From positions 930,001 through 994,000 of the forward strand of contig CP145419.1 of NCBI GenBank assembly GCA_036867785.1: a stretch of DNA of 64,000 nucleotides. Direction: 5' to 3'. The translations under genes and the position numbers were made by a program. The DNA is from Plasmodiophora brassicae. Taxonomy: Eukaryota. Below, piece by piece: positions 1,173-55,708 of the stretch; position 1 is the first letter of the stretch, and the number at the start of each line of letters is the position of its first letter. The notes below the pieces were generated by a model, which was not told where the DNA came from, made no database searches, and was given only the letters and a program-made list of their open reading frames with translations.

Positions 1173-1189
1173 CCGAACTATATATTGTT

Positions 1190-1232
1190 TATGTGTGCAC
1201 GTGTTCGCGTGTGTGTGTGCGTGTGTGCGCGT
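1190..1232. repeat. Imperfect (TG)n microsatellite
   Basis: Runs such as gtgtgtgtgtgcgtgtgtgcgc directly after the OSCA stop codon. Confidence 0.7.
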
Positions 1233-2053
1233 GCTTTGGGCGGCTGGTGTGCGGGCACCGGCGGTCAGGCGGCGTCGTCGTTGCCCATGATCTGTACGGC
1301 GGCGAGCGGCGGCCCCCGACGATCCTGCTGGCGCCACGCCTGCTTGCGGTCGGCGATCGATGCCGGGCACCTGTGGCACGAACGCACGCTCATCGTCAGC
1401 CGCTGCACACGTGTAGGTCCTCATGTGCAGGCGCGAGCGCGGCACATCAACGCAGACCTGTTCGCATAGACGACCGCCTGCAGGTGGGCGACGCCCGCGC
1501 CGCCCCGCATCGACACGCTGACAGGGCACCCGTCCGCCTGCTGCGGGTCGTCGCTGAGGACGGCGCTCAGGTCGATCTGGCCGTGGTACGACGCCCGCCC
1601 GGCACCCGCAATCGCCTGTCGACGCACGACATGAGCACGACGGCGGCGCCCGCTAGCTAGGGCGACCGACCGGGCGCAGGCGGACGGGTAGGGGGCGCGT
1701 GCGACCCACGCCCCGCCTGTCCTGCCACAGGCCACGCTCCAGCGCAACGGCCAGGCGGATCTGGGCCGCTCCACCTGTGCGGCCAACGACCATTACCGTC
1801 GGGCTGAGGGGGCGCTCGCGTCGCCCGAGCACTACTGACCGGCGTCAGCCAGGGCGACTGACGACGAGCACCACCTCCAGGGGCGCTGCCAAACGTCCAC
1901 GACGACGCCGTCGCCGGCGAACGACGCCGGCAGGCCGTGCACGCCGTCAATGACGACCAGGAGCCAGCGGCGACGGACCGGGGGACGGCAGGACCACCAC
2001 CAGGCCGACGACAGCCATTGCAGCAGGTCGCCCAGGTCAGCTGATGACAGCAT
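1200..2053 (-). CDS. Hypothetical protein, probably spliced; boundaries uncertain
   Basis: Coding-like minus-strand segments (MLSSADLGDLLQWLSSAWWW..., ...YHGQIDLSAVL...HLQAVVYANRSA) separated by intron-like stretches. No family recognised. Confidence 0.3.
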
Positions 2054-2238
2054 CCCGTGTGTGGGTGGGTGTGGCGCGCACCGTGTGACCGCTGGCGCGC
2101 GCTCGTATACACCAGCGAGGATGATGATGATGCGCGAGCACCCGGAAGGAGGGGAGGGCGGGCGACGTCGTTGTATGCAGAGCAGTACGTGGTCCTGGTC
2201 AGAGCAGCCCACCACCGGGTGCAGGCACGTCGTCGTCG

Positions 2239-4373
2239 TCACCCGGCGCGCAGCTCCTGGATCGCCTGCACAATGTCGTCGTTGAGCTTGCCCAGCACCC
2301 GCATGTTGTCGTCCCGGCCGTTGGACGGCTCGATGAACTTCATCTCGGTCAGGGCGACGTACTCCTTCTCCAGGGCCAGGCGGATCTGCGACCAGGTCAC
2401 CTTGGGGGCGGCGCCGCCCGCCCCAGCGCCGCCGGCCTCGATCGCCGCCAGCGCCTGCGAGTAGAACGTGACAATGTTGCGCAGCATGCCGGCCGTCTTG
2501 TAGATCGGGCAGAAGCGGTCGTACGACGAGAACCCGTTCTGCTGCAGGAAGTCCTCGCGGATGATCTTGGCGACCTCCAGACACAGGCGCTGGTCCTCAC
2601 TCAGCGAGTCCTTGCCGACGAGCTGGACGACCTCCTGCAGGTCGTTCTCGTCCTGCAGGATTTGCCTACGCAGGAGGGAGGGAGGGTTAGCATCACGCGC
2701 GCGCGCGCGCCCCTGCACCGTCGTCCGCCGCCTACCTGAACACGGCAATGTCCTCGAGGAAGCGCGCGTCGTGCTGCGCGTAGTACCGCTTCAGCGCCAC
2801 CATGTACTTGCTGTACGACATGAGCCAGTTGACGGACGGGAAGTGCTTGCGCTGCGCCAGCTTCTTGTCGAGGCCCCAGAACACCTGCACGATCGACAGC
2901 GTCGCCGACGTCACCGGGTCGGAGAAGTCGCCACCGGGCGGCGACACGGCGCCGACGATCGTGACCGAGCCGGTCCGGGCGGGCGACCCGCGGCAGTCGA
3001 CGCGCCCGGCCCGCTCGTAGAAGGACGCCAGGCGCGCCGACAGGTACGCCGGGTAGCCCGAGTCGGCCGGCATCTCGCCCAGGCGCCCGCTGATCTCGCG
3101 CAGCGCCTCCGCCCAGCGCGACGTGCTGTCGCCCATCATGGCGACGTGCAGGCCCATGTCGCGGAAGTACTCGGCCAGCGTGATGCCCGTGTAGATCGAG
3201 GCCTCGCGGGCCGCCACCGGCATGTTGGACGTGTTCGCCACCAGGCACGTCCGCTGCATGATCGGGTACTCCTTGCCGTCGATCACGGTGGTCAGCTCGG
3301 GGAAATCCTGGGCAGAGCGGCGGGCGGTCACGACCCACGTGAGCGCACGGCACCGGGGGGCGTCCCCCGGGGGCACGCCCGCTCCTTACCTGGAGCACCT
3401 CCGCCATCTCGTTGCCGCGCTCGCCGCACCCGACGTAGATGATGGCCGTACAGTTCGAGTACTTGGACAGGGCCTGCGAGATGACCGTCTTGCCGCAGCC
3501 GAACGCGCCGGGGATGGCGCAGGTGCCGCCCAGGACGGACGGGAACAGCGAGTCCAGGACGCGCTGGCCCGTCACGAGCGGCACCTCGGCGGCCAGCTTC
3601 TCCTTGACGGGTCGGGGCTCCCGGACGGGCCAGAAGTGCGACATGCCGAACGAATGGTCGACGCCGGTGATCGGGTCGGTCAGGACCAGCGTGACGTCGT
3701 CGAGCGTGTACAGGCCTTTGGCGGCGACGAACTTGACGCGCCCCTGCGCCCGCGGCGGCACCATGATCGCCTGCGTGATCAGGTCGTTCTCCTTGACGGT
3801 CCCGTAGACGTCGCCGCCGGCCAGCAGGTCGCCGACCTTGCGCCCGGACGGGTTGAACGCCCACTTCTTCGCGTGGTCCAGCGCGTTGACGCTGACGCCG
3901 CGCGGGATGTAGCAGCTCTTGCTCGCCGAGGCGACCGCCTGCGACAGACGAGCGCAGGTCACTCAGACACACACACACGCACGCACAGCAGGAGAGGGGC
4001 GCCCCACGACTGACCCGGAGCGGCCGCTGGATGCCGTCAAAGATGTTGTCCATGATGCCGGGACCGAGCTCGACGGACAGCGGCTGCCCCGTCTTCTCGA
4101 CCGGGTCGCCGACCGTCAGCCCCGACGTCTCCTCGTAGCACTGAATGGAGGCGGTGTCGCCCTCGAGGCGGATGATCTCGCCGACCAGGCGATCCCGGCC
4201 GACTCGGACCAGCTCGTACATGGCCGACCCGGACATGCGGTCGGCGACGACCACTGCAACAAGACGGGGGCGTCAGCGCAGTGCACAGGCGGCGGCGGCG
4301 CGTTTCCGTACGTACACGGCCCAGCGACCTTGAACACGACGCCGACGTCCGGCGACGGCGGTGCGGGTGCCAT
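2239..4373 (-). CDS. ATP6V1A: V-type H+-ATPase catalytic subunit A
   Basis: Spliced exons carry [18 protein letters not shown]-loop [52 protein letters not shown] and [14 protein letters not shown]. Confidence 0.97.
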
Positions 4374-4831
4374 GGTATGCGCGCGCGCGCACGACCCCCG
4401 CTGGTCGATGGATGCCCTGGGCCCTGACGGACGATGTGCGCGGCGCAGGCGGTCACGCGACGCCGAACAACAACGACGGCGACAGCAACCCCCTTCCCGC
4501 TACGGACTTGCGGCGCAGTGGCGCACTTCACTGGCGGAGACAGAGCGCTCCGGCCCGCGCCCCCCGTCGCCCCCCGTGGCCGCGTGCCGCCGTGCGCAGC
4601 AGTGCTTCGAACGACGTCGACCACATGCGGCCGGCGCACGGGTGCACCATCGCCTGCGCACGGGTGCAGCACGGGACGCCTCGACTGGACCGTAGGGGGG
4701 AACGGCATTGACGTCGTCACCGCCGTTCTTTGTTCCGGGGCGACAGTGACGCCCTGCGTGATTCACCATGCATGCGGGGGCGGTGGGCGGGCCCGGATCG
4801 TAGCGTTCGGTCTCGCGCCTGCAGTCGGGCA

Positions 4832-6199
4832 ATGATGCTGCCAGACGTGGGGATCGTGGGGACGGGCAGCCTGCGCGAGGCCGGCGGTGGCCACCCGAGC
4901 AACCGCACCCGTCCCAGATATCATCGGGCAGAGCAGCGGCGCTCGTCGCTTTGGAATGCGCTGATGCGACCGTCGACAGCCGCCGGCGTGCGCTGGCTGG
5001 TCCCTGTCGTCATCCTGAACATCCTGGGCATCGTCGCCATCTTCTACGGGTCGGCCAAGACGCCGGCGAACGTCCTCGTCGGCACCGGCTACCACCAGGC
5101 CGCCACGTCATCGTTTCCTGGGCGATCGCCGTCGTCGTCGTCGTCGACGTTGGGCGACGCCCCGCTGCTGACGATCGCGATCGACGCCGACCGCGGGTCC
5201 TGCCCCGAAAACTGTGCCTTCATCCACACGCTGCTGCCGGACGGCGCCCGCTGGCGGTACGTCTCGTTCCGGGGCGACGACATCGCTGCGCTGAACATCG
5301 ACACGCACGCGCTGGTCGTCACGCGCTGGATGGCGCCGTCGTCACCGCTGGTCGCCTGGGCGCGCCGGCACCCGCACTCGGTCGGCGCCATGATCATGGC
5401 CGACGAGCAGAACACGGACGACACGTCCACCTACAACGCGTTCGACTACGTCCTGCGCCACTACTACTTTGACCGGCTGGCCGGCGACGCGTCCATCCCG
5501 GTCCTGGCGCTGGGCAACCTGACGTGCGGGCGGACGGCACCGGGCGCCTGGCCCCCCGTCGTGGCCGCCGCCCCCCGGTTCGGCGTGCACTGGGTCTTCC
5601 TGCAGGGGCGCGGCATGGGCAACCTCGAGTCGCACCACGTCGCCGGGTCGCACTGGCCGGCCGACCGGCGCCCCGTCCCCGCCGTCTTCATCGGGTCGCT
5701 GCGCGCCGACCGCCAGGACATGATCGACGTGATCCGCGAGCAGGTGCCCGGCGCCGACCTGCAGGTCGAGGAGTCGTTCGGCGGGTCGCTCTCCGCCTAC
5801 CGGTACGGGCACGAGCGCACGGCGGCCAGCGTGTTCGCCCTGTGCCCGCACGGCAACAACCCGGAGACGCACCGCCTGCCGGAGGCCCTGGACCAGGGCG
5901 CCATCCCCGTCATGCTGCCGGCCGCCTACCAGCGGGCCACGTTCGAACCCGTGCCGGGCATCGTCGCGCCCGACTGGCGCGCGGCGGCCGGCGCCATCGG
6001 CGACCTGCTGCGCGGCGACGCCGACCGCCTCAACCGCCTCCAGCAGCAGTGCATCCGGTGGAAGGAGCGCCTGCGCCAGTGCATGCAGCAGGACTTGGAC
6101 GTCATCATGGGCATGGCGTTCCGCCAGGCGGGCACGCGCCTCGACTGGCAGGCGGTGGCGCAGGCCGGCGGCGCCCGACCGGCGTCGTCTAGCGTATAA
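4832..6199 (+). CDS. Type II membrane glycosyltransferase, exostosin (GT47)/RXYLT1(TMEM5)-like
   Basis: Intronless ORF with one N-terminal TM helix (WLVPVVILNILGIVAIFYG) and the C-terminal motif SVFALCPHGNNPETHRLPEALDQGAIPV. Confidence 0.7.
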   Translation: MMLPDVGIVGTGSLREAGGGHPSNRTRPRYHRAEQRRSSLWNALMRPSTAAGVRWLVPVVILNILGIVAIFYGSAKTPANVLVGTGYHQAATSSFPGRSPSSSSSTLGDAPLLTIAIDADRGSCPENCAFIHTLLPDGARWRYVSFRGDDIAALNIDTHALVVTRWMAPSSPLVAWARRHPHSVGAMIMADEQNTDDTSTYNAFDYVLRHYYFDRLAGDASIPVLALGNLTCGRTAPGAWPPVVAAAPRFGVHWVFLQGRGMGNLESHHVAGSHWPADRRPVPAVFIGSLRADRQDMIDVIREQVPGADLQVEESFGGSLSAYRYGHERTAASVFALCPHGNNPETHRLPEALDQGAIPVMLPAAYQRATFEPVPGIVAPDWRAAAGAIGDLLRGDADRLNRLQQQCIRWKERLRQCMQQDLDVIMGMAFRQAGTRLDWQAVAQAGGARPASSSV

Positions 6200-6436
6200 A
6201 GAGCAGCACCAGCGACACGACACCAGATCCGTGACGACGTCGTGTACTTTGTCGTGAGTGACTCAGTGCGTCATCCCACGTGGGAGCAGGGGGGCGACCC
6301 CCCAGTTGCGTCACGCTGGACGGGCACCCCGCTGGTGCACGATCTGTCGCGGGTCAAGCGCCTCATACCCAACGTGTTACTTCGAATCGCACACGCAGAG
6401 ACGCCCTATAACCTCTATCACATATCGCACGACCCC

Positions 6437-8414
6437 ATGGGCAAGGTGCGCGCCGCCATCAGCAACCACTGGAAGCAGACGACGTACCGGCGCAGCGAGC
6501 GCACGCTGGCCAGCGAACGGTGGCTGTTCGTCGGCCTGCCCCTGGTCCCGTTCAACCGCTGGGCGCTGATCCCGTCCGCCTTCCTCATCCAGATGTGCGT
6601 CGGCAGCCTGTACGCCTGGTCCGGGTTCAACGCGCCCAGTACGTATCGGCGCGTCGTCGTCATCGGTGGCCCCTCGCCCGTCTGACCCGGCGTGTTCGAT
6701 CGCACAGTTGAGCAGTACGTGTACGGCGTGCAGGCGGTGAACGGCCGGCCGCCCGACCTGAACATCGCTCCGGTGACGTTCTACATCGCCGTCGTCTGCT
6801 TCGGCGTGGCGGCGGCGATCCTGGGCCCCTGGACGGAGCGGCACGGGCCGCGGGCCGCCATCCACCTCGGCGCCACCCTGTTCTTCGTCGGCAACCTGAT
6901 CACGGCCGCCGGCATCTCGCTGAGGACCATCGCCCTGGTCTACGTCGGGTACGGCGTCGTCGGCGGCACCGGCCTGGGCATCGCGTACATCAGCCCCGTG
7001 TCCGTCCTGCAGAAGTGGTTCCCGGACCGGCGCGGCATCACGGCCGGCCTCACGGTCGCCGGGTTCGGCGCCGGCACCATCGTCGCCACGTGTAAGTGTC
7101 GTCGTCGTCGTCGTCCCCGACGTCGCTCGCGCCGCCTCTGACAGCACGTCCTCCCATCGGGCAGATACGCAGAAGGCGCTGATGGCGCCGATCGGCCCGG
7201 GCGGCCCGCCCACGCTCGACGTGTACGCCGTGTTCCTCGTGCTGGGCACCGCCTACTTCATGGTGATGCAGGCCAGCGGGCGCGTCCTGCGCATACCACC
7301 GCCGAATTACGCGGTCGATGGCGTCACCGTCAGCACGATCAAGGGCGCCGACGAGCTCGACGTCGACGGCGAGGACGACGACCCCGCCGGCAACGACGCG
7401 TTCCTGGACGACGATGTGCCGCCCGTGTCGCGTATCGCCGTCCCGGACGAGATCCTGTCGACGACGCTGAACAGCATGTCGCTCAGTGCGGATGCGGTCG
7501 CTGCGCCCGACGATGACGACGACGCCGACGTCGCCGAGGCGTCGACGGCGCCCACCGTCGACGCCGTCGACCCGCTGTCGATGTCGCTGACGCAGTGCCT
7601 GCTGTCGCGCCCGTTCCTCCTGCTGTATGTCGCGTTCTTCGGCAACCAGATCTGCGGCCTGCTGCTGATCTCCAAGATCCAAACGAGTACGCCCCCGCGC
7701 GTCGCGCCTGCTCTGCATCGCGATCCCCTGACCGCCCTCGTGACAGTCTCGATGACGCAGTTCGGCATGAGCGTCGACGCGGCGACGTCGGTGAACGCGG
7801 CGGTCGGCGCCGCGAACCTGTGCGGCCGCTTCCTGCTGTCGACGGCGTCGGACCGGATCGGGCGCAAGTCGTCGCTGCTGGTGTCGCTGGCCGTCCAGAC
7901 GCTCTGCATCGCCCTGCTGCTGGTCACGTTCGACGCCGAGTCGTCGTCGCTGTTCCTCGCCTGCGTCGCCGTCATCGCCTTCATGTACGGCGGCGGGTTC
8001 GGCGTCGTGCCCGCGTTCCTGAGCGACCTGTTCGGCGCGCGGCACACGGGGCCGACGCACGGCGTCATCCTGACGGCCTGGTCGCTGGCGGCCGTCGTCG
8101 GCGGCCTCCTGTTCACGTCGCTGTACAACCGGGAGACGGCGGCGCTGGGCGCGCACAACGCCCACGTCTACGACCTGAACGGGTACTGGATCCTGGGCGT
8201 CGTCGTCGTCGCCCTGCTGGTCGGCGCCTGCATCCCGGCCAACATCCGCGACCGGGTCATGCCCCGCGGCGCCGACGAGCTGTTCCGCCTGCGCCTGCCC
8301 AACGGGACGCTGGCCGTCGTCACCAGGGCGTGCGGCCTGGACACCGTCGACAAGGAGACCGAGGACGCCCAATGGAAGGCGTACGTCCGCCAGCGACGCC
8401 AGGCCATGCCCTAA
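6437..8414 (+). CDS. MFS transporter, oxalate:formate antiporter (OFA) family
   Basis: Motifs QMCVGSLYAWSGFN, GLGIAYISPVSVLQKWFPDRRGITAGL, SDRIGRK and YGGGFGVVPAFLSDLFG. Short introns near 6640-6708, 7092-7164 and probably about 7685-7746. Confidence 0.88.
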
Positions 8415-8506
8415 GAACATACGCCCCCCGTACGAACCATCGGGCCACTTTCTCGCGTCCCATTCATATCCGTCTCCCCGTCGTCCAAGCCACACAATAC
8501 AGCACG

Positions 8507-9528
8507 TCACCCGACCCGTTGCTGTGTATCCACCGTATGGGCCACCGACTCGTTCACAGCATCGCCGGTCGCCCCGAGCGCCGGTTCTCGTGCATCGGAC
8601 GCCGACCCCGCCTGGTCGTCGTCGTCAGACGACGTTGGCGGCATGTCGCGAGGTTCCTCGCATTCGGACCCGGCGGCGACATCGCTGCCGTCGTCGTCGT
8701 CGTCGTCGTCCGACGACGACATCAACAGCATGTCGCGGCGCGGCTGTCGCGTTTGCGCCAGCCAGTCGTTCTGGACGCTGATGACGTCGGCGCTGGTCTG
8801 GCACGCCTCGTACAGGTCGAACAGGTCGCTGCGGAACACAGAACGCGTCAGACCTGCAGGGAGTACGGCCGGCGCGACGAGCGCCCTGCGCGTACCCGTT
8901 GACTTGAATGAATGCGGGGCCCCAGTTGAACTTGTCCAGGATCTGCTCCGCGAGCGGGCGCTCCCCGATCAGGATCAGGGTCGCGGCGATGGCCTCGACG
9001 CAGGTCAGCTTCATCGGGCGGCCGTAATTGACCGGGTTGGCCGCGACCATGAACGGCACTACAAGACGTTGCTGGTCAGGCGCCGCCTATATAGGATGCG
9101 CGTTCGGCGGATGGACGTACGGAGGCGGTCGGCCCCGCTCTTCAGCTTGTTGAAAGGGACATTGTCCAATGCGTTCCACGAGCAGTCGATGACGCCAATA
9201 CCGCCGGCGAGCGCCACGTCACGGTCTTCCCGTGACACGGTCCGCTTGCCCTTCGGGCTCAGCACGACACCCGGCCATCGCTGGTTCAATCGCAACTCCT
9301 TCAACAGCCCTGGCAAACGGAACGTTCGTCAGCGCGCAATACACGCCGACCCAGGCAAGGCCGCAGCCGACCGAGTCGCGCCAGCTTCCTGCCCGTGCAC
9401 CGTTTCGAATCGCATTGCCCGAAATCCCACATGGCCAGCGCAATCGGGAACGCGTGCCGCACGTCCTGGCGGGCATCGCGGGCGCCTGTCGGCCCCTGTG
9501 CAGGCCGCCGTCGCTCCCTTCGTGTCAT
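8507..9528 (-). CDS. TSR3: 18S rRNA aminocarboxypropyltransferase Tsr3
   Basis: Exons encode [52 protein letters not shown] and FNWGPAF, followed by an acidic C-terminal tail. Confidence 0.95.
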
Positions 9529-9889
9529 CACGGACTGCGCGACGACGCCACGGACTCCGCACGACGGGTACATAGGACCGGTACCATCCACACTAACGGG
9601 GGACGCCCGATGCCACTCCGACCGCGTTACCTATTCCCGTGCCCGACCCGATCTGCCAGCGTCTTGGCAAGGGCGTCGTTGCCGGCGGGTGCCAGCTCCG
9701 ACTCGGGCGATTCGCCCGCCCGTAAACCTCTGCGTACACGGCGCATCGGGCCCGAGCGAGATGCAACAGCTCCAGGTGGCTGCCCGATGTATGGCGACAG
9801 TACCTCGGTGGTTATCACGCGATGATGACGTCGCTCGCGCGCGTCATATTGGGACGGATGTGGGGAATCGCGGCGATCGTTGCCCTGCG

Positions 9890-10360
9890 CTAGGCGTCCG
9901 TGTCGGCTCGTCCGCCGGCCCGCATAGCCGCCAGGTGCATCTGGACGCGCTTAACGTCGGCGGCAATGGCGTCGTCGAGCGGGAATCGGCGCAGTCGATC
10001 CGCCAGCGCCCAACCGAGAATCGGGTTGTCACCGTGGTGGACCAGGGCCGGGTCGGCTCGCAGGATGGCCAGCAGCAGATCGCCGCAGAGGAACCCGGAA
10101 TCGCCGCCCTGCTCGCAGGACAGGATCTGGCACAGTATCATCAGCGTCGACCGCATCACGTACTGCGAGACGCGGCCGTGCGCGATCAGGTCGCCGAGCT
10201 TCCGGCAGCAGGCGCCGGCCACGGCCGCCCTCGTCGAGTTCTCCTTCAGCACGTTCAGCAGGACCACGTCGGCATCGGACACCTCCAGCTCGTTGATCAG
10301 TGCGACGGCCTCGCCCGTTGTCACATGGTCCCTGGTCAGCAGGCGGCACACGGCGGCCAT
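9890..10360 (-). CDS. Hypothetical helical protein; may extend by splicing to about 9627
   Basis: Coding-like ORF beginning MAAVCRLLTRDH between TSR3 and the ZIP gene. No motif recognised. Confidence 0.45.
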   Translation of the reverse strand: MAAVCRLLTRDHVTTGEAVALINELEVSDADVVLLNVLKENSTRAAVAGACCRKLGDLIAHGRVSQYVMRSTLMILCQILSCEQGGDSGFLCGDLLLAILRADPALVHHGDNPILGWALADRLRRFPLDDAIAADVKRVQMHLAAMRAGGRADTDA

Positions 10361-10607
10361 CGAACGCCACGACCCTTCCCTGACGCAACACGTCACCTGC
10401 CGCCGCCGCGCTGCTGGTGCCAATACTGGCAACGGCCACACCGAACGCGGAGTCCGAGACGGACGATAACACAAATAGCGCCGTCACGGACACAGAAATA
10501 GCGCGCCCGGCACTGTCGGGTCGGGGGCGCCGCGAACGCCGCCGCGAATCCGCCGGCACTCGTCTCGGCCCACTGGTCGCGGCTATACGTATAGGTGGGT
10601 GATCGCT

Positions 10608-11610
10608 TCACGATTTAACGAATGCCAGCAGCAGCATGCAGTGCGACATGACGAACAGGCCGGCGAAGGCGGCCGGCGCCACGGCCCGCCCATCGTACTG
10701 GAACGCGGTCGGCAGCATGACCGTGAACGCCAGATACGTCATCATGCCGGCGACGATACCGTAGCTGGCGCCGTAGACGCGCGGGTCCAGGTCCCCTTCG
10801 ACGCCCTTCATGATTGCGTACCCGAACAGCGACCCGACCGGGCTGACCAGCCCGCTCAGCGTCCCGGCCAGGAAGCCTTTCAATCGCGACCGCGTCTGGT
10901 AGTACACGGGCAGGGCCACCGCCATGCCTTCCTGTTTCAGGGCACTCACGTCTTCACAACACACTGCGTTGACAGGATCGCGCCACCCTTACGGGGATGT
11001 TGTGCAGGCCAATGGCGAAGGCGAGCGGCAGGCCTGCCGCGATACCCGTTGTCAGGCCCATGAAGGTCGTCAAACCTTCCGGTAGGTTGTGCAACGAAAT
11101 GGCAACGCCGGTGATGATGGCAGCACGAAGCATGGCGGTCGATGGCTTCACGTCGCCGTCGTACGTCGTCAGGTTGTTGTCGAACGCGGCGGTCTCCGTA
11201 TCCCTGTCGTGCTCGACGATGATGTTCTGCAACTCGACGTCCTCGCTGACGGGAACAGGGTCCTGAAGGCGGTTGCCATACCGGGTCAGGACGCCGACCG
11301 TGATACGATCCAGCAGGTAGGTCAGGATCGCCCCGCCAAAGAAGGTTTCGACGGCTTCCAGATGGGCCAGCTGCGCGTCGGCACGCGCCGCCGCATACGC
11401 CGCCGCCGACTGCTGGATCAGCGACGCCAGGCTGACGTACAGCATGACGCCGGCGGCGAACGCCATCGACGCCGACAGGAACCGTCGGCTGAGGATCCGC
11501 GGTATGAGGACCACGCTGGCACCGACGGTCGTGATCAGGCCGGCCGCGGCGCTGATCGCCAACGCCTTGTCCAGGACCTCGCCGGACGGGCGATCCGCCA
11601 TCGACGCCAT
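10608..11610 (-). CDS. ZIP family (ZupT-like) divalent metal transporter
   Basis: AFAAGVMLYVSL, AISLHNLPEG, AIGLHNIP|EGMAVALPVY (intron about 10934-10991) and AGMMTYLAF. Confidence 0.92.
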
Positions 11611-11813
11611 CGGTCAAAATGGTCCTCGACGCATCGGCGCCCAATTTTGTCAGGCGCCGCTCCAGTCACGACTCGCGCGGTTGCCGCGACGGGCACCGAT
11701 CCGACCTGCACCGGACGCGCGCTGTACGTCGTGCGCCACTGCGCCGCCACGGACGCCGTACCGTGAACTACCACCGTTGCAGTCGCGGACAGCGCACGTG
11801 CGGCTTGTCTGGT

Positions 11814-13319
11814 TTAGGACGACAGTGGGACAATGTAGGCGACGATGGCGGCGTAGTGCAGCGAGGAGCCCAGCAGGACCCAGAGGTGCCAGACGATGTG
11901 CATGGCGGGTGTGGTGGCACCCTTCACGAGGAAGGCGACGCCGACCGTGTACGCGATGCCGCCGTGCAGGACGAGGAGCATGGCGGGCTGCGGGATCAGC
12001 CCCGACCGGACAATGGGGACCCCCGCGATGACGCACATCCATCCCATGGCGAGGTACAGCGCCGTCGACAGCCAGTCGAAATGCTTGTGCCCGCGCATGA
12101 ACGTCGTCAGGAAGATGCCGACCAGGGCCAGCAGCCAGATCCCCAACAGCATCGGGTTCGCGATCTCGGGTCGCGACCGCAACGATATCACGAGGAACGG
12201 CGTGTACGACCCGGCAATCAGCATGAACACGCTGCCATGGTCGAGGTACTTGAAGAAGCGCTTCGCGGCCCGCAACTTGAACAGCGAGTGGTACAGGGTC
12301 GAGCTCAGGTCTGTGCCGGCCAGACGTTAGACCCCCGGCGGTGGCCACGTGCGAACGAGAAGGAATCCGGCGTACACGTCAGGCACAGTGCGAACGCGTA
12401 CGGGACGGTGCCGACGAGGTTCCGCGTGTCCCGCGTTTGCCAGGCGCGCCGAATCAGGAACCAGGACCCGATCATGGCGAACAGCAGGCCGACGCCGTGC
12501 GTGACCGAGTTGAGGATCTCGTGGACGTACAGGTTGCTCTCGGTATCAACTGGTGCATTCCTGGGTCAAACATGGACGCTGGCGATGGGCGCAACGCAAC
12601 GCCGGCAGACATACCCTCGAAGGCGCACCCGACCGACTGGATGGCAAACACGCTGGCCATGCCCAGCTGGTTGGACGACAGGTCCAGGGATTTGAGTCGC
12701 GACGCCGGATTCCGGAGGACATCTGCGGCGGAAACGGCGCGGGTCAGCACCGCCGACGGAACCGCCCCCGACGTGAGCGCGCGCACACCCAATATCATCG
12801 ACGTCAGCGAGCCGCCCAGGTGGCATCGGCGCAGGTTGACGTGCTCGAGCGGGCAGTCGCCCGTGGCCATGTACTCGAGCAACGGGGCCGCCGCCTGCGG
12901 TCCAATACGGGATCCCTGTACGTATCGTACGTCGATCAGGCGCGCGTTGCCGGAGACGCGGTGGCGGTGCGCACCTCCAGGTCGAGGCGGACGACGGACG
13001 GCAGGCGGCGCAGGCAGTCGACGAGCAGGCCGGCAACGGCGACGCCGAGGCGCGCGTGCGCCAGGTGCAACTCCTGGACCTGCGTCGCCAACGGCAACGC
13101 CTGCAGCAGCGGCAGCAGATCCAGCGCCTGCAGGTGCCGGTCCGGGACGATCGCCCTGCTGCCCATCAGCAGCGACGCCGCGATGCCTGTTGCGGGTGGC
13201 CGTCAGCGGCACCCCATCGACGACGGCAACGGCAACGACAACGGACCAGCGTTGACGTCGACCTTGTACCGGTGGCACTGCTCAACGTAGACGCTGGCCG
13301 CATCGGACACCTTCGCCAT
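11814..13319 (-). CDS. N-terminal LRR (RI-like) domain fused to a hemolysin III/PAQR 7TM domain
   Basis: LRR motifs VQELHLAHARLG, LEHVNLRRCHLG and LKSLDLSSNQLG. Intron 12614-12550 joins CAFE|VDTESNLYVHEILNSVTHG in frame. The PAQR metal-binding motifs YHS, LDH and H-x-x-W-H follow. Confidence 0.8.
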
Positions 13320-13393
13320 CGACGACCGCCGGTCCCCGACCGCGCTCAAAATAGCAATGCGCGCGCCCAGCAGCATCATCATCACCATCATCA

Positions 13394-14242
13394 TCATCGT
13401 TGCCAGCGCGCGATGACGTCGTCGAGGAAGCGCTGAACGCGCGGCGACCGACGCGTGCCAGCGCGCAGGACGATGGCGATCGATGCGATCCAGGCGCGAC
13501 TGTCGTCGTCCTCGTCGCCGGCCGCCGTACAGGCCGACAACGCCGCACACATGGCGTCGTCGAACGACGCGCCGTCGTCGTCGTCGTCGTCGTCCGGCGG
13601 GGCACGCCGTTGCCGGGCGACCGCGGCGCCGGCCAGGATCGGCAGGGCGTAGCGGCGCAGGAGCGCACCGGAGCGCAGGAGCGCGCCGACGGCCCGCACG
13701 ACGCTCGCGTCGATCCGGACGGTCGGCGGGGCGTCGTGCCGGCGCAGGGCGTCGGCGACGACGGCGCAGGCGAGCACGCGCGTCTCGACGGAGAACGCGA
13801 ACCCGTCGTCGCGGACGACGTCGAGCGTACGCGACGGGGCTGCACCCGACAGGATCCGCTCGACGACGCCGGCGCCGCCGACGTGGACGCACCGCAGCAG
13901 GCAGTGCAGGACGTACCCGGCGGCGTCGTCGTTGTCGTCGCCGACCTGGACGGGCAGGACGTGGCAGAGCGCGTCGGCGACGCCGCGGACGCTCCAGCAG
14001 GGGCGGCGGTCCGTCCAGAGCGCGGCCGACAGCGTCCGACAGGCGGCGGTCGCCAGGTCGCGCGACGTCGTGCTGGCCGCGATCCACAGCAGCTTCTGGA
14101 GATGGTCGTCGGCGAGCGCGCCGATCGGCAGGGCGGGCACGACAACGCCGAGCACGGCGGGGTCGTACGACGCCAGCAGCAGGTCGCAGACATCGACGGC
14201 CCGCCGCTCGTCCACGCCGTCGTCGGCACCGCCGTCGCCCAT
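13394..14242 (-). CDS. Hypothetical ARM/HEAT-like helical protein
   Basis: Intronless ORF of about 282 aa, rich in Leu/Ala/Val amphipathic helices. Family not recognised. Confidence 0.5.
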   Translation of the reverse strand: MGDGGADDGVDERRAVDVCDLLLASYDPAVLGVVVPALPIGALADDHLQKLLWIAASTTSRDLATAACRTLSAALWTDRRPCWSVRGVADALCHVLPVQVGDDNDDAAGYVLHCLLRCVHVGGAGVVERILSGAAPSRTLDVVRDDGFAFSVETRVLACAVVADALRRHDAPPTVRIDASVVRAVGALLRSGALLRRYALPILAGAAVARQRRAPPDDDDDDDGASFDDAMCAALSACTAAGDEDDDSRAWIASIAIVLRAGTRRSPRVQRFLDDVIARWQR

Positions 14243-14597
14243 CGCACGCACTTGCTGATTGTACATACAATATATGACACGGCGCCCTAACCCTGCAGCT
14301 CCCGCGTGACGCGACTATATGACTGGTCGCCCTAATCTCCGCCGACGTACCCAATTGGTATAGGTACCGTCATCTCGACGAGGCAGCCCTGTGCTGTGTG
14401 ACGCGCGACGAACACTGGCGTGACCCGCATCAGGGAATATCTCGGGCGAGGCGCTACTCAGCCACTCATGTACTTCACTCTGTGACATCGAGCACTGGCG
14501 AAACGCACGTTGGAGAAGAATATCTCGGGTGAGACGCTCTGGAGGCGGTCGGTCCCAGTGTATCCCTGTTGAGGACAGCGACGTCGCCATTCCAAAG

Positions 14598-16217
14598 ATG
14601 GGCGCTCGCGTCGGTCTGCTTCTCATCGTCGTGCTCGGCATCGCCGTCGCCCAGGAGTGCACGGAGCCGCCTCGGGATGACCGGCGGTGCGGGGCAGCGT
14701 TCGGCAATGCACGGTGCAGGCCCGGGCAGTGCTGCTCGCGGGTATGCACGTTCCGTCGCAGGCGCGCGCCGTTCGCTCCGGCTGACCCGTGTCGCGCCAG
14801 AACGGCCGCTGCGGGTCGTCGTCGTCGCATTGCAACCCCAGATCGCGATGCGCGCGAGAACCGGCCGTCGTCTCGGAGGCTGCCGTTTGTTCGGCGCCGC
14901 CCTTGACGTCAGGCCGGTGCGGTCCCGATTTCGGCAACGCCGGGTGCAGCGATGGCGAATGCTGTTCACCGGTACGCGATCGCCGCGTGTCTCGTCGTGT
15001 CTGACCGGCCGCTGACGACATCGTAATCGCAGAGTGCCTGGTGCGGAACGACGCCTGCCCATTGCAATTCGCGGTCCCTGTGTCCAGCGGCAACGACGAC
15101 GCCGGCTGTCCAACCACAGCGCCAGCAGCACCAGCATCAGCGACCAAGTCGACGACAGGCGTCGAGTTCGGACGGTCCGATCCGCGCCATGTCGTCGTGT
15201 GGCAACAGCAGGCGCATGGTGGCGCTGACGTTCGACGACGGCCCGACGCCGGGGGCCACCGAGCCCATCCTGGAAGTCCTCGCGGACCACAACATCAAGG
15301 CGACGTTCTACCTCACCGAGGACAACACCGGCCCGGCCGGCTGCCCGCTGATCCGGCGCCTGCTTCGCGAAGGGCACATGATCGCGCATCACAGGTCGGT
15401 CGCGGCGTCATCCGTCACCAGAACAGACGCTGACACATCCACCGGCGCAGCAAGTCGCACCCGCAGTTCAACCTGCCATCGACGAACCTTCGCCGGGAGA
15501 TGGAATCGCCGGTGGCCTGGATCGCCGCGTGCGGCGTCGACCCGGTAAGCTGCATTGCAGCGTGCGCCGTCGCTGTCTGCCGCGCCGTGCCGACCCGTGC
15601 CGCGTGACAGGGGCTGGTCACGCACTTCAGGCCGCCGTACGGGCAGCTGCGCGATGATCAGGTCCAGGAGATATCCGGGCGCATGGGTAGGCGACGTTAT
15701 GGGCGCTGCTAGGCCCCATCCACTGCTGCCTATAACGCGTATCGCAGGGTTCGTGATCGACCTGTGGAACGTGGAGACGATGGACTCGGATGACGGCAAC
15801 ACGAACCAGGAGTCGATCGAGAACGTGAAGCGCGCCATGCGCACCATTGGTATGGGCGTGTCGCCGTTGTCGTTTACCGCCCGGTCGTCTCTCATGTCAA
15901 CGCTGCGAACAGGAGTGGGCAACAGCGCCGTTGTACTCATGCACGACTACGCGGAAGGGCCCCGGATCGTCGACGCCCCAGGTTGGTAGTGTACTCTCGC
16001 CCGGGCGACGCGGCGCTGTCTGACGGCCGGCACAGACGGGAACGCGCTCGTGCAGATCATCGAGTACTTCCGGTCGCTCCGGTACAGGTTCGTGCGGATG
16101 GACGAGTGCTACGCGCAGTGTGACGCGCCGAGGTGCTTCGGCAACGGCGGTCCCACCCACTGGGCCAGCGTGTTCGACCCCGACCCCAACGGCGTCGGCA
16201 CGTTCCCCGCCGAATAG
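14598..16217 (+). CDS. Secreted chitin deacetylase: two CBM18 (hevein) modules plus a CE4/NodB domain
   Basis: Signal peptide MGARVGLLLIVVLGIAVAQ. Hevein-like RCGAAFGNARCRPGQCCS|..CG....C and RCGPDFGNAGCSDGECCS|..WCG....C. CE4 motifs ALTFDDGP, HS..H, FRPPY and VLMHD. About seven short introns. Confidence 0.9.
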
Positions 16218-16344
16218 CCGGCCCCGACGCCTGTTCCAGAACGAAATACACGTACGTCGTACAGCGGGGAGCGGTGGGCCCCCAATCCAGGGGGGATCAA
16301 CGTCGTATTCGCAAATGGGAACAATAAGGTGTGCACCGGCCGGG

Positions 16345-18846
16345 CTACCGGCTGGCCCCGCCCGCAGACGCCGCCCGGGACGCCTTGGCGGCCTCCTCCT
16401 CGATCTTGATCTCGGCCTTCTCGATCAGCATGTCCAGGTGCGGCTTGACGTGCGGCCACAGGCGCACCAGGGCGGCCTTGCAGGCGTACCCGGAGTTGAT
16501 GCCGACGCCCATCGAGTACATGGGCCCGAAGCCCCGGTCCCAGAACGCCACCAGCATCAGCAGGTCGGGGCCGGAGCGGAACGCGCCCTTGGTCGCGTTC
16601 AGGCGGCACCTGCGGAAACGGGTGCGGCGGTCAGAGCGAAACAGGAGCGGGACAGGGGCGTCACGCGCACGTACCGCCAGAACTTGAGGCGGAACTCGGC
16701 GTCGATTCGCGACTTGAGCATGCAGAGCGCGTTGATCGGCTTCTTGGACCACTGCGTCTCGAACCAGGGGCGCAGCGGCGTCGAGTCCCAGGGCGTGTAC
16801 GGCTCGAAGTGCAGCAGGCCGGGGACCGGGTCCGGCTCGGGCATCGACTCGGCGTGCTGGGGCGTGACCAGCCCCTCGATCGAGACCGAGTCGGCCAGGG
16901 ACGCGCCCCGAACGTACCGCGACAGGAACGACTGGCAATTGCCCAGCGACTCGGTCGACGACATGGGCGCCTTGGCATCGTCCGCCATGGCGCGCGCGTC
17001 GTCATCCTCGGCAATGGCGCCGTCTTCCTCCGCAATGGCCCCGTCTTCCTCCACGATGACACCACCGTCCTCCTCCTGCTTGTCGACCGCCATGCGCGAC
17101 GCGCCGTTCCCGTCGGCATCGGAATCCAGGTCGCCGTACAGGTCGACGACGGCCGGGACCGCGGGCGCAGGAGGGCGGCTGTCGTTCGCTCTCGCGGGCG
17201 CAGGCGCCGGCGGTGTCCCAGGGTCGTTCGTGGCGCCCTCCTCGATGACCTCGATGCGCGACGACGACACCGACAGGACGCGCTGTCGATTCGACACGAT
17301 CGTCGCGATCGCCTTCTTCAGCGACCGGTCCGCATCGCGAACGTCGTCGGCGTGCATCTCGGTCGAGCGGCGCGGGCGCTTGCGCAGCGACGTGACGGGC
17401 GCCGGCTGCATCTTGTCGATCCGGACGTTGTAGTACGCCAGGACGCGCGCCGACACGTCGTCCTTGGCGGCCTTCTTGCTCGGCTTCGGGTCGCCCTTGA
17501 TCACGACGGGCGGGTCGCTGCCGGGCATCGTGAAGATGCCCCGGAAGGCGCCGGACAGGGTGACGTCCTCCGACGACGTCACGTTGACAACGTCGACGGT
17601 CTTGGCGGGGAACGCAATCCTCCTCGTCATCTGCAGCCATTCGTGCAGCAGCGCGCTGGGCGGCTTCTGCAGCGGCTCGTTCATCAGCGCCTGCGCTGGC
17701 GCCGGCGCCATCGTCGTCGTCGTCGTCGTCGACACCACGTTCATCGCGGTCGGGGCGACGGACGGCGCCGGCGGCGCTTCCTGCGAGTGCCGCGTGAACG
17801 CCAGCGACATGTCGACGTCCAGGTGCTTCAGGACCATCTTGGCGACGGCGTCGCGCGCCTGCTTCTTGGACGGGAACGCGTCGCTCCGCATGACGAGGTC
17901 GGGGCGCAGGCCGGGCACGTCGCGACAGTCGACGCCGTCGGGAACGGAGAACTCGGCGACGAACTGGGACGCGCCGAGCACGCCCGACTGCGTCCCGTCG
18001 ACGACCCAGGTCGTGATCGTCCGTGCCGGGTACGCCATGCGGACGCGCGACTGAAGGAACTCGAACAGCGCCTGCGACGGGTTCTTGTGCCCGATCACTT
18101 CGCCGGCCGGCGCGCTGCCGCTGGCGAACGACGCGTACAGCTTGTCGGTGCTCGTGTGGGCGCTGCTCGTCACCGCCTCCTCGATGGCGTCCAGGATCTC
18201 GTACGTGACCGTCGCCAGGCGCGGCGTCAGGTGGATCTCCTCCTGCGGCTGCGTCTTGGAATTATCGCGGAGGAAGCACCGCCCGATGATGGCCTCGACC
18301 GCCGTACCCTGCGCGACGCGCCACGTCAGAACCAATACACATCCAGTGGGACGAGGGCGTCACGACAGGAACGCGGACTGGCTCGTCATCAGAGCCCCCC
18401 ACCCCACCCCGGTTCGTGTCGCATTCGACATAATGCTATGTCTGGATGGGCGGCCCAGACATAGGACATTGCCGAATGCCGAGTGGGGTGCACAGCGACC
18501 GGGACAGGGCGGGGTCAGCCACCCCAACTACGCCCGAGCATACCTTTTCGTGGATGGACGCCCCTTCCCATTCGTGCTGCGACAGGTACCTTGGGACGAC
18601 GAACGGGTGGCCGATCAGCGCCAGCGTCTCGTTGCTGACCATGGTGCCGCGCAGCATGGTCAGGCGCCCCTCGCTCTTGGCGTCGTACCGTTTCAGCAGG
18701 CGCCAGTACAGCATGATGTCCAGGAGCTTGTCGCCGATGAGCGCCTCGACCTCGGCGGTCCCATCGCCGCCCAGCGACCGCAGGCGGATCGGGTCAGATT
18801 GCTCCGGCGCGACCACGGTCATCGCCGGCGACGCGGACAGATCCAT
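16345..18846 (-). CDS. RNase III (Mini-III-like) domain protein with two clear and one degenerate dsRBD
   Basis: EALIGDKLLDI, EGRLTMLRGTMVSNETLA and K|GTAVEAIIG across intron 18543-18309. dsRBD-like segments: KNPSQALFEFLQ...FPSKKQARDAVAKMVL, KPPSALLHEWLQ...PSKKAAKDDVSARVL and KKPINALCML...GVGINSGYACKAALVRL. Confidence 0.78.
18400..18490 (-). ncRNA. Candidate intronic pre-miRNA-like hairpin
   Basis: Paired blocks 18436-18445/18455-18464 (10 bp perfect), 18432-18435/18467-18470, 18421-18429/18471-18479 (one G-U on the transcribed minus strand) and 18400-18407/18483-18490. Confidence 0.45.
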
Positions 18847-19101
18847 GGCAACGACGACGGACGACGACGCCGCCAACTGCGTTCTGCTCCCAGCGAGCGA
18901 CGACGAGGCGCGGCACTGGCGCGCACTTTCCGTGCCCGGCGCATTCTGTGTGCGTCAGTCACGGCATTATTGTCAAGTGGCAGCAGCCCACCGGCTGCCC
19001 CCGGGGCATGATGCATCGGGAACATCGGTCGTCGGTCTGCAGGCGGCGGCGATGGTTTTTGTCATTTCGGTTTTTGGTGAGCGGGAGGGTGGGCGACGGG
19101 G

Positions 19102-21909
19102 ATGGCGGCGTCGCTGGGCGGCGCGTCGGCGTTCCTGGCGGACCTGCCGGGGTCGTCGATGGTGCTGGCGCTGCAGGACCTGTCCGTCGTCGTGGACGCG
19201 GCCGCGATCGCCTGGGTCGTGTTCAACCTGCGCGGCCGGGCCGTCAACGTTGTCAACACGGACCTGGTCGCGCAGGCGCAGCAAGTTCGGTGCCAGGCGT
19301 GTTCGCCGAATGCGACAGTCGGCTCTGACGCGCTGCCATTCGGCAGGCCTTCGCCAGGCTCGACGACCTGATCAAGCAGCGCGCAGTCAAGCTCGTGATG
19401 TTTGCGTCGGGCAAACCGGGAACGTTCATAGCCGGTGCGGCAGTCGCAGCCAGTTACTGGGCAGGTCGCTCATCTGGAACGCGTCATTACAGGGGCCGAT
19501 ATTGACCAAATCTACCCAAACGTCGACCTGAATGCTGCCGTCGAGGTTTGCTGTCCGCTGTCCGACCCCGCAGGTGCTGTTCTCTGACCTGCCTATTAGG
19601 CTTCAAAGAGCGGCCAAGCGACGTTCGCGAAGATCGCACAGCTTCCCGTTGTCACGGTTGGTGCCTCAGTCGGATCGCGGCTCCCCATCGTCGGTTCACA
19701 GAATGATCTGCTAGGTGTGTGCGATTAACGGCGCCGCGCTAGGCGGTGGTCTTGAACTCGCCCTGGCGTGCGATTATCGCGTCGTCTGGGACTCTCCCAA
19801 GGTCCAGCTCGGACTGCCCGAAGTTAAGCTCGGCCTGCTTCCTGGAGCCGGCGGCACGGTCCGGTTGCCGCGCCTTGTGGGCCTGCAAGCGGCACTAGGC
19901 ATGATCCTGGCCGGCGGGTCGATTCGCCCTCAGAAAGCGTTGGCAATGGGGCTGGTCGATGAGATCGTCTCATCGGGCCCCGGAGTCCTTTCTGAGGCTG
20001 GGTTCTTTCTTGGCGTCCGAGACATTGCCATCCGCATGATTGACGGAAACGTATCGAAGCGCTCCGATACGCCTGCCTCCTCACTATCGTTTCAGGTTTT
20101 CTTCGCCACCAAGACGTTGATTGCGCGAATCCTGATCGAATTTATGTCAGGATCGTTTCTTGAATGACACCTCGGTGGGTCGTTGGGTCGTTGCGCGTCA
20201 AGCTGCTGCGTCGCTGGATCGGATGACGCGTGGCCAGTACCCTGCACCGTACCTGGCGCTGGACAGCGCCGTGCACGGTATGTCTGTTGACCTGCAGGCA
20301 GCGCTGGACTATGAGGCAGCGCTGTTTGGGCGACTGGCTGTGTCCCCTGAATCCAAATCGCTGATCGCGCTCTTTCGCGCTACTGAGAACAACAAGAAAC
20401 GGGGAGCGTCCAGTGCTGCACCTCGGACTCGTGTACGCAAGGTCGGCATCATTGGCGCTGGCGTGATGGGCGCTCAAATCGCGGGCATCTGCATCGGCAG
20501 AGGGTTCCACGTTTATCTTCGTGACATCAATCCGTCCATCGCTGAGAATGGCCTGCGTTTCGCCATTGAATCCGTGAGGCGGCCGCCCCCGAATATTAAA
20601 GACGTACGGTTTGCAGTGCGGCGCTTTATACGTCCAGATTCTGACGCCATTCGTTGTAGTTGATTTCTGCTGGGACTTCCATCGACGGGTTTCGAGACTG
20701 CGACGTTGTCATTGAAGCGGCCGTCGAGAGAATGGACCTCAAGCAGAAAATCCTCGCTGACGTGGAAGACGTGCTGTCTCCTCGTGCGGTGTTTGCAACG
20801 AACACGTCATCGCTGTCCATTGACACGCTGTCGAACGGGGCGCGGCGTCCCGGGCAAGTCTGCGGCATGCATTTCTTCAACCCGGTGCAGAGGATGCCGC
20901 TGGTGGAGGTGATCCGTGGCAAGAAATCGAGCGTACGGTCGTGTTCCAGGTTGGCCATGCCTATGTCTTACCAGTGCCATGTTTGTCAGAAAGAAGCTAT
21001 CGCGCTCGTGTACAAGCTCGCTCTTGACTTGGGCAAGACGCCCTGCGTCTGGTAGGTGGATGCAAGGCGATCCTTCGCCGAACCGTGCTGACCGGTCGAA
21101 CGTAGCCGCGATGGGCCGGGCTTTATCGTGAACCGCATCCTCGGGATCTATATGAACGAGGCGGGGATCCTGGCGATGGAGGGGACGCCGATCGCTGCGA
21201 TCGACAAGGCGCTACTCGATTTCGGCATGCCAATGGGCCCATTCCGCCTCATGGATGAAGGTTGCACGATGTCTCGTTCCGATTCAGCACGGGCTGATTT
21301 CGTGACTGTCTAGTTGGCCTGGACGTCGCCGCTCACGTCGGGCCAATCCTGGAATCCGGCCTCGGTGCCAGGTTCAAACAGGTCGGCCCATTTGCCGGCA
21401 TTCTTCGCGGGAAGGGTGACGGCAAGAGACTGGGCAAGAAGACCGGTGCAGGGTTCTACCTGTACGACAGGAACGGCAAGACCGACCCATCGCGTCTCAA
21501 TCCGTCAATGATGGACGAGGTGGAACGTGCCACTAACAAGCCGCGTCATGTGTCGTCAAGCGCAGACGTCGTCGACCGGTGCATATTGGTGGCTCTCCAG
21601 GAAGCGTGCCACATACTTCAGGATGGCATTTGCGGCAGCGCGGAAGAGCTCGACCTTGCCATGGTGTTTGGCACCGGTTTCGCCCCGTTCCGAGGTGGGC
21701 TACTGAACTACGCCGATCAACTCGGCGCCAAAGAAGTCGTCCAGCGCCTCGCTGCGCTGTCAGAGAAGGTCAGTGCGGTTAGGTTCAAGCCGCACGCCAC
21801 GCTGACAGAGATGGCTGCCAACGATGGCAAATTCTTCCCGGACCGTCCACTTGGGACGACTCCTGTCGGCCCATTGCCGCGTTCTGCGATTCGCATAAAC
21901 AAACTATGA
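19102..21909 (+). CDS. Multifunctional beta-oxidation enzyme (enoyl-CoA hydratase / 3-hydroxyacyl-CoA dehydrogenase), HADHA/FadJ-like
   Basis: [86 protein letters not shown] and GFAPFRGG over many exons. Ends in -NKL. Confidence 0.93.
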
Positions 21910-55474: not shown

Positions 55475-55708
55475 TGATCGACCGGGGTAATTAAGGAAGT
55501 GCACACCACCATCGCGATATCCTTTGTCAGCTGATACCATTTCCCCGGGTAGAAGACGAGGAACGAGGCATTGGCGAGCGATCTTGATGTGTGGCAAGAT
55601 CGCTCGCCAATGCCTCGTAGTCGTTCCTCGTCTTCTACCCGGGGAAATGGTATCAGGTGACAAGGGATATCGCGATGGTGGTGTGCCCTTCCTTACCCCG
55701 GTCGATCA
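55475..55708. repeat. Near-perfect fold-back (about 112-bp arms, 8-nt loop)
   Basis: 55475-55586 pairs with 55595-55708. Differences are about three substitutions, a 4-nt extra in the left arm and a 6-nt extra in the right arm. Confidence 0.95.

Follow-up and report, generated by a model that had tools for sequence, protein, structure and literature searches.

We analyzed a 64,000-nucleotide (nt) stretch of the Plasmodiophora brassicae genome (contig CP145419.1, positions 930,001 to 994,000; hereafter the window), which is GC-rich eukaryotic DNA of 55-71% GC, and we describe here a hairpin inside the first intron of a gene for an RNase III-like protein. The gene lies on the minus strand and begins with an open reading frame (ORF) that runs from the ATG at 18846 to 18544 (MDLSAS...SIHEK). 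A protein search identified it as P. brassicae PBRA_007775, deposited as an 'RNase III domain-containing protein' (P0003, 730 aa, 99% identical). A second deposited model (P0044, 733 aa) is letter-identical to the window exons across the HEK/GT junction, and the frame joined over the first intron, ...SIHEK/GTAVEAIIGR, is the same in P0003 and P0044. The host gene is PBRA_007775 / XXQ36725.1, which codes for a non-canonical RNase III-like protein with domains resembling the double-stranded RNA-binding domain (dsRBD). Its layout is as follows.

18544 to 18846, minus strand: exon 1; 101 codons, equal to residues 1-101 of P0044, with a Pfam Ribonuclease_3 match (E 9.2e-07)
18309 to 18543, minus strand: intron 1; 235 nt, GT..AG, phase 0
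18325 to 18329, minus strand: CTGAC branch-site-like motif, 16 nt 5' of the 3' splice site of intron 1 (intron position 215)
16675 to 18308, minus strand: exon 2; the remaining RNase III-like domain (GTAVEAIIGR), a pair of dsRBD-like folds and a linker of low complexity
16610 to 16674, minus strand: intron 2; 65 nt, GTACGT..CAG, with a junction (KFWR/CRLN) that matches P0003 and P0044
16345 to 16609, minus strand: exon 3 with the stop codon; 733 codons over all exons, the length of P0044

Exon 1 codes for the first portion of the RNase III-like domain, EVEALIGDKLLD included, and intron 1 divides this domain between HEK and GTAVEA. The preceding exon ends with ...GAAAAG at 18544, the intron opens with GT at 18543/18542 and it closes with AG at 18310/18309. 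Intron 2 contains the same CTGAC motif, 20 nt 5' of its 3' splice site.

Intron 1 is precisely spliced and unusually long

Splicing was examined in the Logan contigs of four runs from four studies, which were aligned to 18000-18900. A search for sequencing runs listed 24, of which 20 contain 17900-18900; the kinds of the runs are guesses and none is recorded as RNA, and it is because spliced joints are present that we take the contigs to include RNA. Two runs of the listing contain 0.77 of the words of 17900-18900, which corresponds to the stretch without intron 1. All four of the aligned runs have a contig that omits exactly 235 nt (CT..AC on the plus strand), showing that the gene is expressed and, together with the deposited gene model, bearing out the intron that a first-pass annotation, made from the DNA letters alone, had placed at 18309-18543. 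Two of the runs (X19 and X20) contain the spliced form only, at depths of 56 and 54.4, and the other two (X7 and X15) contain an additional 292-nt unitig that reads through intron 1 (18281-18572). The depth of this intron-bearing unitig is 7.4 vs 16.1 in X7 and 24.2 vs 217.8 in X15, or ~31% and ~10% of the summed depth. Over 18000-18900, no letter difference from the window was found in any of the four runs. Two ORF fragments that read into intron 1 and are letter-identical to the window, P0006 and P0047, were considered as signs of retention and set aside, because they stem from gene calling on contigs as long as 43 kb, which are probably genomic.

The P. brassicae genome is compact, with introns of 60 bp on average and repeats amounting to 5.4% (PMC4471660). 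At 235 nt, intron 1 is about fourfold the usual size, as the first-pass annotation had noticed, whereas the 65 nt of intron 2 are ordinary for this genome. A heuristic intron finder returned 82 candidates in the whole window, clustered at 55-77 nt with a flat tail of likely false positives, and was not used to judge how rare such a length is.

A stable hairpin occupies the middle of intron 1

A repeat search and RNAfold located two nested elements in intron 1.

18421 to 18479, minus strand: core hairpin; 25-nt arms at 18421-18445 and 18455-18479 and a 9-nt loop at 18446-18454
18397 to 18514, minus strand: full foldback; 118 nt, the sense RNA of which forms one unbranched 46-bp hairpin with 8 G.U pairs

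The core stem with its 9-nt loop had been described in the first-pass annotation as a helix of 9 + 4 + 10 bp; RNAfold divides the same helix into 9 + 2 + 11 bp with a 7-nt loop. Its single mismatch becomes a G.U pair on the sense strand (18472.18428), also as annotated. The 8-bp basal helix proposed there exists (18400-18407/18483-18490), but in longer folds it is outcompeted by a 17-bp helix with 4 G.U pairs that forms on the sense strand only (18397-18413/18498-18514), in which the C-rich run 18498-18514 is paired with the G-rich run 18397-18413. The sense G-run, GGGGUGGGGUGGGGGG at 18397-18412 (minus strand), thus has two possible C-rich partners, 18483-18490 (8 bp) or 18498-18514 (17 bp), so that the hairpin base can adopt either of two conformations. 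Between the upper stem (23-25 bp) and the 17-bp lower helix lies a large asymmetric internal loop. The foldback covers positions 30-147 of the 235 positions of the intron and is flanked by 29 and 88 nt. A mirtron likewise yields a hairpin from an intron, but its hairpin base is defined by the splice sites, and a mirtron was rejected given the internal position of the foldback.

The significance of the fold was estimated against dinucleotide shuffles (200 for the 91-nt and 126-nt stretches). The 91-nt stretch folds at -41.8 kcal/mol on the sense strand (z -5.08, 0/200 shuffles as good), and its antisense strand has a z of -3.69 (1/200 shuffles as good). The 126-nt stretch (18393-18518) folds at -65.8 kcal/mol on the sense strand (z -4.44, 0/200) and has a z of -2.48 on the antisense strand (3/200), and for the whole of intron 1 the z values are -2.55 (sense) and -1.74 (antisense). 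The shuffle comparison that had been suggested in the first-pass annotation favors the fold, more so on the sense than on the antisense strand, and the hairpin is confirmed to be real, stable and beyond chance. In a background scan of 12,784 segments of 90 nt, covering both strands of the 64 kb, the intron hairpin is the fifth-ranked distinct locus, with a GC-corrected z of -3.8; the neighboring ranks have z values from -3.8 to -4.6, and the scan contains a much stronger outlier at 55.5 kb. Being only the fifth locus in 64 kb, it indicates that such hairpins are not rare here: it is unusual yet not unique, and a comparable strength is reached about once per 13 kb in the window.

One role for such a fold would be to aid splicing, since it could fold the extra length away and bring the 5' splice site near the branch site for a spliceosome adapted to introns of ~60 nt. 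Folds in yeast introns provide precedents, and in sampled structures 28.1 steps lead from the 5' splice site to the branch motif, compared with 209 nt along the sequence. However, dinucleotide shuffles of the intron interior gave a mean path of 19.5 (sd 6.2), and 135 of 150 were as compact or more. Compaction for splicing was rejected on this ground, the native path being no shorter than those of the shuffles; the equal compactness of the shuffles implies that compaction is generic for a GC-rich sequence of this length and is not a property of the hairpin. We consider a splicing aid very improbable.

The foldback is single-copy in the window and its arms are imperfect

The core hairpin has no second occurrence in the 64-kb window, even when 3 mismatches are allowed, and a sensitive blastn search of intron 1 against the window matched only the intron itself and its own inverted arm. 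The best Rfam match on 18250-18600 has an E-value of 2, and the whole window gave 0 matches at the gathering score. The best match among the Rfam microRNA (miRNA) families, which lies outside the core hairpin, was mir-3132 (17.3 bits vs a gathering score of 84, E 2.4).

In the inverted-repeat test, the arms are complementary at 41/49 aligned positions. Aligned with each other as DNA, they show 41 matches, 8 mismatches (six of the G.U type on the sense RNA, one A.C and one other) and 13 gap columns. Such imperfect arms fit the decay of an older repeat. By eye, an imperfect direct repeat surrounds the foldback on the sense strand, with GGCTGA before it and GGCTCTGA after it.

Could the foldback be a member of a multicopy family, either of miniature inverted-repeat transposable elements (MITEs) or of introner-like elements, that was inserted in the host gene? 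The inverted-repeat architecture, the imperfect flanking direct repeat (again as read by eye) and the lack of an intron at the equivalent site in one distant family member (L001, described below) all speak for it. The lack of a second copy in the window speaks against a family that numbers many hundreds of copies but would be compatible with a low-copy MITE; the first-pass annotation had itself raised a multicopy MITE fragment as the finding that would undo its proposal, and within the 64 kb no further copy was found. Moreover, the inverted repeat lies mid-intron (positions 30-147 of 235) and not at the intron ends as in introners, and repeats make up only 5.4% of the genome (PMC4471660). We regard a multicopy origin as unlikely.

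The 3' half of intron 1 could also be read as a box C/D small nucleolar RNA (snoRNA), with a box C-like UGAUGA at 18387-18392 and a CUGA at 18326-18329, ~60 nt apart. However, the CUGA falls within the CTGAC branch-site motif found in both introns, only 8 nt separate the C'-like motif from the CUGA, no terminal stem was seen, and the Rfam C/D match is noise (sR47, 11.9 bits vs a gathering score of 40, E 2). A snoRNA was rejected because its box D is the shared branch motif, its terminal stem is missing from view and its Rfam support is noise, and we consider it extremely unlikely.

The outlier of the background scan is a near-perfect foldback at 55475-55705 (plus strand) with ~108 bp and an 8-nt loop (RNAfold -207.8 kcal/mol, z -25.7), which contains a perfect 24-bp core (55563-55586/55595-55618). 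It is single-copy in the window, has no long ORF and lies upstream of a 478-aa ORF (56156-57592). The presence of this far better foldback indicates that inverted duplications do arise in this genome. It is a textbook case of the long inverted-repeat foldback, and the intron hairpin resembles it in that inverted-repeat DNA gives one stem; it differs in being shorter (46 vs ~108 bp), in having a large internal loop and in being intronic and not intergenic. About 500 nt upstream of the large foldback is the second-ranked local fold of the scan (54891-54980, plus strand), a 21-bp stem with a 3-nt loop (-41.2 kcal/mol, 48% GC, GC-corrected z -4.6).

The host protein belongs to an RNase III-like family with a degenerate active site

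The Pfam family PF00636 matches P0003 with 33 bits (cut-off 27). A HMMER search of 1.84 billion representatives returned 39 proteins at E <= 0.001, with a sparse eukaryotic spread (relatives P0004-P0041); the named members are one each from Blastocladiella and Mesostigma. In P0019 (1059 aa), the domain is apparently N-terminal to a helicase, as read by eye. The alignment includes 31 of the 39 proteins; P0006, P0007, P0008, P0012, P0026, P0030, P0032 and P0036 were left out as short or C-terminal fragments. Residues A35, G38, D39, D43, E106, A107 and G110, among others, are nearly invariant in the 31 sequences. Searched against the PDB, the family profile matches DCL4, DCL3, Dicer-2, Drosha and bacterial RNase III (best E 1.5e-17; 51 sequences at E <= 0.01), and it also aligns with the RNase III domain plus dsRBD of solved structures. 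These alignments identify the host protein as a genuine homologue of RNase III.

Gapless alignments place the family motif EalALlGD over ERLE(V/F)LGD and kGTavEA over lGDvlEA. Ala35, which is nearly invariant, falls on the second Glu of ERLExLGD, and Thr103, mostly Thr in the family, falls on the Asp of (A/G)DxxEA, while the other two acidic positions are retained as Asp39 and Glu106. One pairwise alignment, to E. coli RNase III, gap-shifts the first motif, but the Dicer alignments and the profile do not. The catalytic metals are bound by four acidic residues, namely the E and D in ExxExxGD together with the D and E in DxxE, and on the strength of the alignments the replacement of two of them points to an active site that is non-canonical or inactive.

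The AlphaFold model of the protein was built on a 2-sequence alignment and has a mean predicted local distance difference test score (pLDDT) of 42.5, so it was used only for two dsRBD-like units, alpha-beta-beta-beta-alpha folds at residues ~178-263 and ~315-390 (pLDDT 60-81). R3B2 of Mucor is reportedly made of an RNase III-like domain plus two dsRBDs, and by description only, the host protein is similar, its dsRBD-like domains coming after a single atypical RNase III-like domain; the likeness concerns the protein and not the hairpin. A C-terminal domain (P0003 residues 585-730; window ~16345-16800, minus strand) is strongly conserved in P0003, P0004 and P0005, and residues 585-730 of P0003 have no Pfam match. 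In the ESM Atlas, these C-terminal 146 residues score 0.80-0.85 with mostly dsRBD-type clusters, below the bar of 0.9 and thus as a lead only. This domain may be a third, divergent dsRBD.

A metagenome scan for the family gave 2 loci from 596 pattern matches. In one of these, the distant family member L001, HEK-GT is read continuously without an intron, and therefore the position of intron 1 is not universal in the family. The other, L002, codes for an ordinary bacterial-type RNase III with ERLEFLGD.

The deposited sequences of the host protein also differ among themselves. A run of ACG triplets at window ~17713-17730 (minus strand) codes for six Thr in the window and P0044 and for three in P0003, and is a length polymorphism between isolates; P0003 has further single-residue differences, e.g., T10A, V11M and R86K.

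The small-RNA setting and the proposed regulatory roles

According to a 2026 report (PMC13547706), 90% of the small RNAs of P. brassicae are 21 nt in length, and they are phased, have 2-nt overhangs and strongly favor a 5'-C; the annotation lists 234 miRNAs, and the small-RNA loci are mostly intergenic, after which come transposable elements, exons and introns. The same text describes PbDRL, a Drosha-like enzyme with two RNase III domains, as the sole RNase III enzyme found in P. brassicae and as one that cuts double-stranded RNA to 21 nt in vitro and is required for miRNA accumulation (PMC13547706). PbDRL is the only RNase III protein named in its main text, and two proteins with three dsRBDs, Pb09092 and Pb07475, are reported there to show no PbDRL binding in yeast two-hybrid assays (PMC13547706). 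The host gene codes for a single RNase III-like domain and is therefore distinct from PbDRL. If its C-terminal domain is a third dsRBD, the host protein could be one of the 'three-dsRBD' candidates described in that text (PMC13547706).

The first-pass annotation had proposed that the enzyme cleaves its own pre-mRNA, i.e., that the host protein binds and cuts the hairpin of its own transcript in the manner of rncO. The hairpin does lie within a gene of the RNase III superfamily with dsRBD-like domains, and the unspliced form is detectable in 2/4 runs. It also counts for self-regulation that E. coli RNase III mutants at the two changed positions reportedly have some activity left at high metal concentration. 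The claim is nevertheless not upheld: two of the four catalytic carboxylates are Ala/Thr, with Ala35 nearly invariant in the 31 relatives, the loop differs from the AGNN tetraloop of the Rnt1p type, and with ~one such hairpin per ~13 kb, chance co-location is not negligible. Because of the Ala/Thr active site, and because the proven small-RNA enzyme, PbDRL, is the product of a separate gene, self-cleavage is highly unlikely, though not impossible.

PbDRL itself is the more plausible enzyme for this hairpin, which could be an intronic miRNA-like precursor that it cuts into one 21-nt duplex; this would bear on the other suggestion of the first-pass annotation, that the intron hosts a small RNA. 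Since cutting before splicing would destroy the transcript, it would tie the level of the host protein to PbDRL activity, as in Drosha-DGCR8 or MIR838. The predicted strands are as follows.

18458 to 18478, minus strand: predicted 5p 21-mer, from the pair-table register
18420 to 18440, minus strand: predicted 3p 21-mer, the partner of the 5p strand

A transcribed hairpin that fits a 21-nt duplex is indeed found, as the 23-25-bp upper stem is part of the 46-bp hairpin and lies on the strand of an expressed gene. The hairpin is stable, unbranched and sense-favored, and 18458-18478/18420-18440 is the only 21/21-nt duplex of the core stem with a 5'-C on both strands and 2-nt 3' overhangs. Intronic loci are included among the sources of the 21-nt 5'-C RNAs of P. 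brassicae, PbDRL dices in vitro, and plant DCL1 introns offer precedents (PMC13547706 and PMC4429486). However, several registers are possible, and by our own estimate a 5'-C/5'-C register would occur by chance about one time in three, making it weak evidence. The large asymmetric internal loop is unlike the long near-perfect 'palindromic region' illustrated in PMC13547706, the main text of that report names no intronic miRNA in an RNAi gene, and its two three-dsRBD proteins were negative for PbDRL binding. A search of the window for target-like sites of the predicted 21-mers (<= 5 substitutions) found the hairpin itself and one 5-substitution match at 61192 that is at chance level. Taken together, we consider a PbDRL precursor with cross-regulation rather unlikely, though it is the main alternative to the explanation we favor.

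A more specific version of this idea makes the hairpin a sensor of Drosha-like activity: PbDRL would cut the nascent host transcript, the host protein would be the missing cofactor of PbDRL or its antagonist, and a 21-nt 5'-C RNA would be released. We consider this version improbable.

Composition of the window

The window has a step in composition, with 65-71% GC in its first 20 kb (1-20000) and mostly 55-62% in 20001-64000. Within the latter part, there are short rises to ~65% at 28-30 kb and 42-44 kb.

Discussion

The explanation we favor, tentatively and at somewhat less than an even chance, is that a short intron was lengthened long ago by a local foldback insertion, which is removed together with it. 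The central 118 nt would be an old imperfect foldback, formed either by local inverted duplication or by a low-copy foldback insertion, that made an ordinary ~60-nt intron about four times longer. The sense RNA would collapse into the ~46-bp hairpin and, in most transcripts, leave with the intron. Any small RNAs would be by-products of PbDRL acting on the transcribed 25-bp stem and not of the protein of the host gene. Intron 1 and its removal, the fold, the occurrence of only one copy in the 64 kb and a host protein whose active site is degenerate are direct observations. The precise removal in 4/4 sets, with the spliced form only in 2/4, the lack of an Rfam family match and the family-wide loss of two of the four catalytic acidic residues from the host protein speak for this explanation. 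We infer both the origin by inverted duplication and the absence of function.

Several observations weigh against it. In a compact genome with ~60-bp introns and 5.4% repeats, a decayed neutral insert of 118 nt is somewhat unexpected (PMC4471660). Folding is more favorable for the transcribed strand (z -4.44 vs -2.48), which hints at selection on the RNA, and so does the 6:1 excess of G.U-type over A.C-type mismatches (one-sided binomial p ~0.06), although this excess could equally come from a presumed C-to-T bias on the non-template strand. The intron-bearing unitig could reflect regulated retention, or equally pre-mRNA or genomic DNA. In addition, P. brassicae makes hairpin-derived 21-nt RNAs, some of them intronic (PMC13547706), and the stem contains a 5'-C/5'-C 21/21 duplex. 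Finally, intronic hairpins in RNase III genes arose twice in plants (PMC4429486).

These plant cases, the closest known, are real precedents, as the first-pass annotation had stated for MIR838: hairpins in DCL1 introns yield miR838 in Arabidopsis (intron 14) and miR1047 in Physcomitrella (intron 7), and excision of the hairpin gives truncated host transcripts (PMC4429486). The P. brassicae locus is similar in that an RNase III-family gene carries an intronic hairpin and the organism makes 21-nt RNAs from hairpins. It differs in that the plant host gene codes for the processing enzyme, whereas in P. brassicae the known processor, PbDRL, is the product of a different gene and the active site of this host protein is degenerate.

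A second system for comparison is Drosha, which cleaves hairpins in the 5' untranslated region and coding sequence of DGCR8 mRNA. By analogy, the P. brassicae hairpin would provide a Drosha-type cross-regulation of the mRNA of a dsRBD protein, again through a hairpin in the precursor. Unlike the DGCR8 hairpins, it is intronic, and the two-hybrid tests of two dsRBD proteins with PbDRL are reported as negative (PMC13547706).

In summary, the earlier interpretation is partly supported. P. brassicae was recently reported to run RNAi without Dicer, with one Drosha-like enzyme (PMC13547706), and a second RNase III-family protein, so far overlooked, with a hairpin in its pre-mRNA would offer a natural site for feedback. 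Should the hairpin be no more than a decayed foldback, the finding would be an ordinary one, but it would still flag the Ala/Thr RNase III-like family and the near-perfect 108-bp foldback. If feedback does take place, this would be the third independent case in which a gene of the RNase III family carries an intronic hairpin. If the hairpin is a sensor, Rhizaria would have independently evolved a Microprocessor-style homeostatic loop, convergent with Drosha-DGCR8 and MIR838/miR1047.

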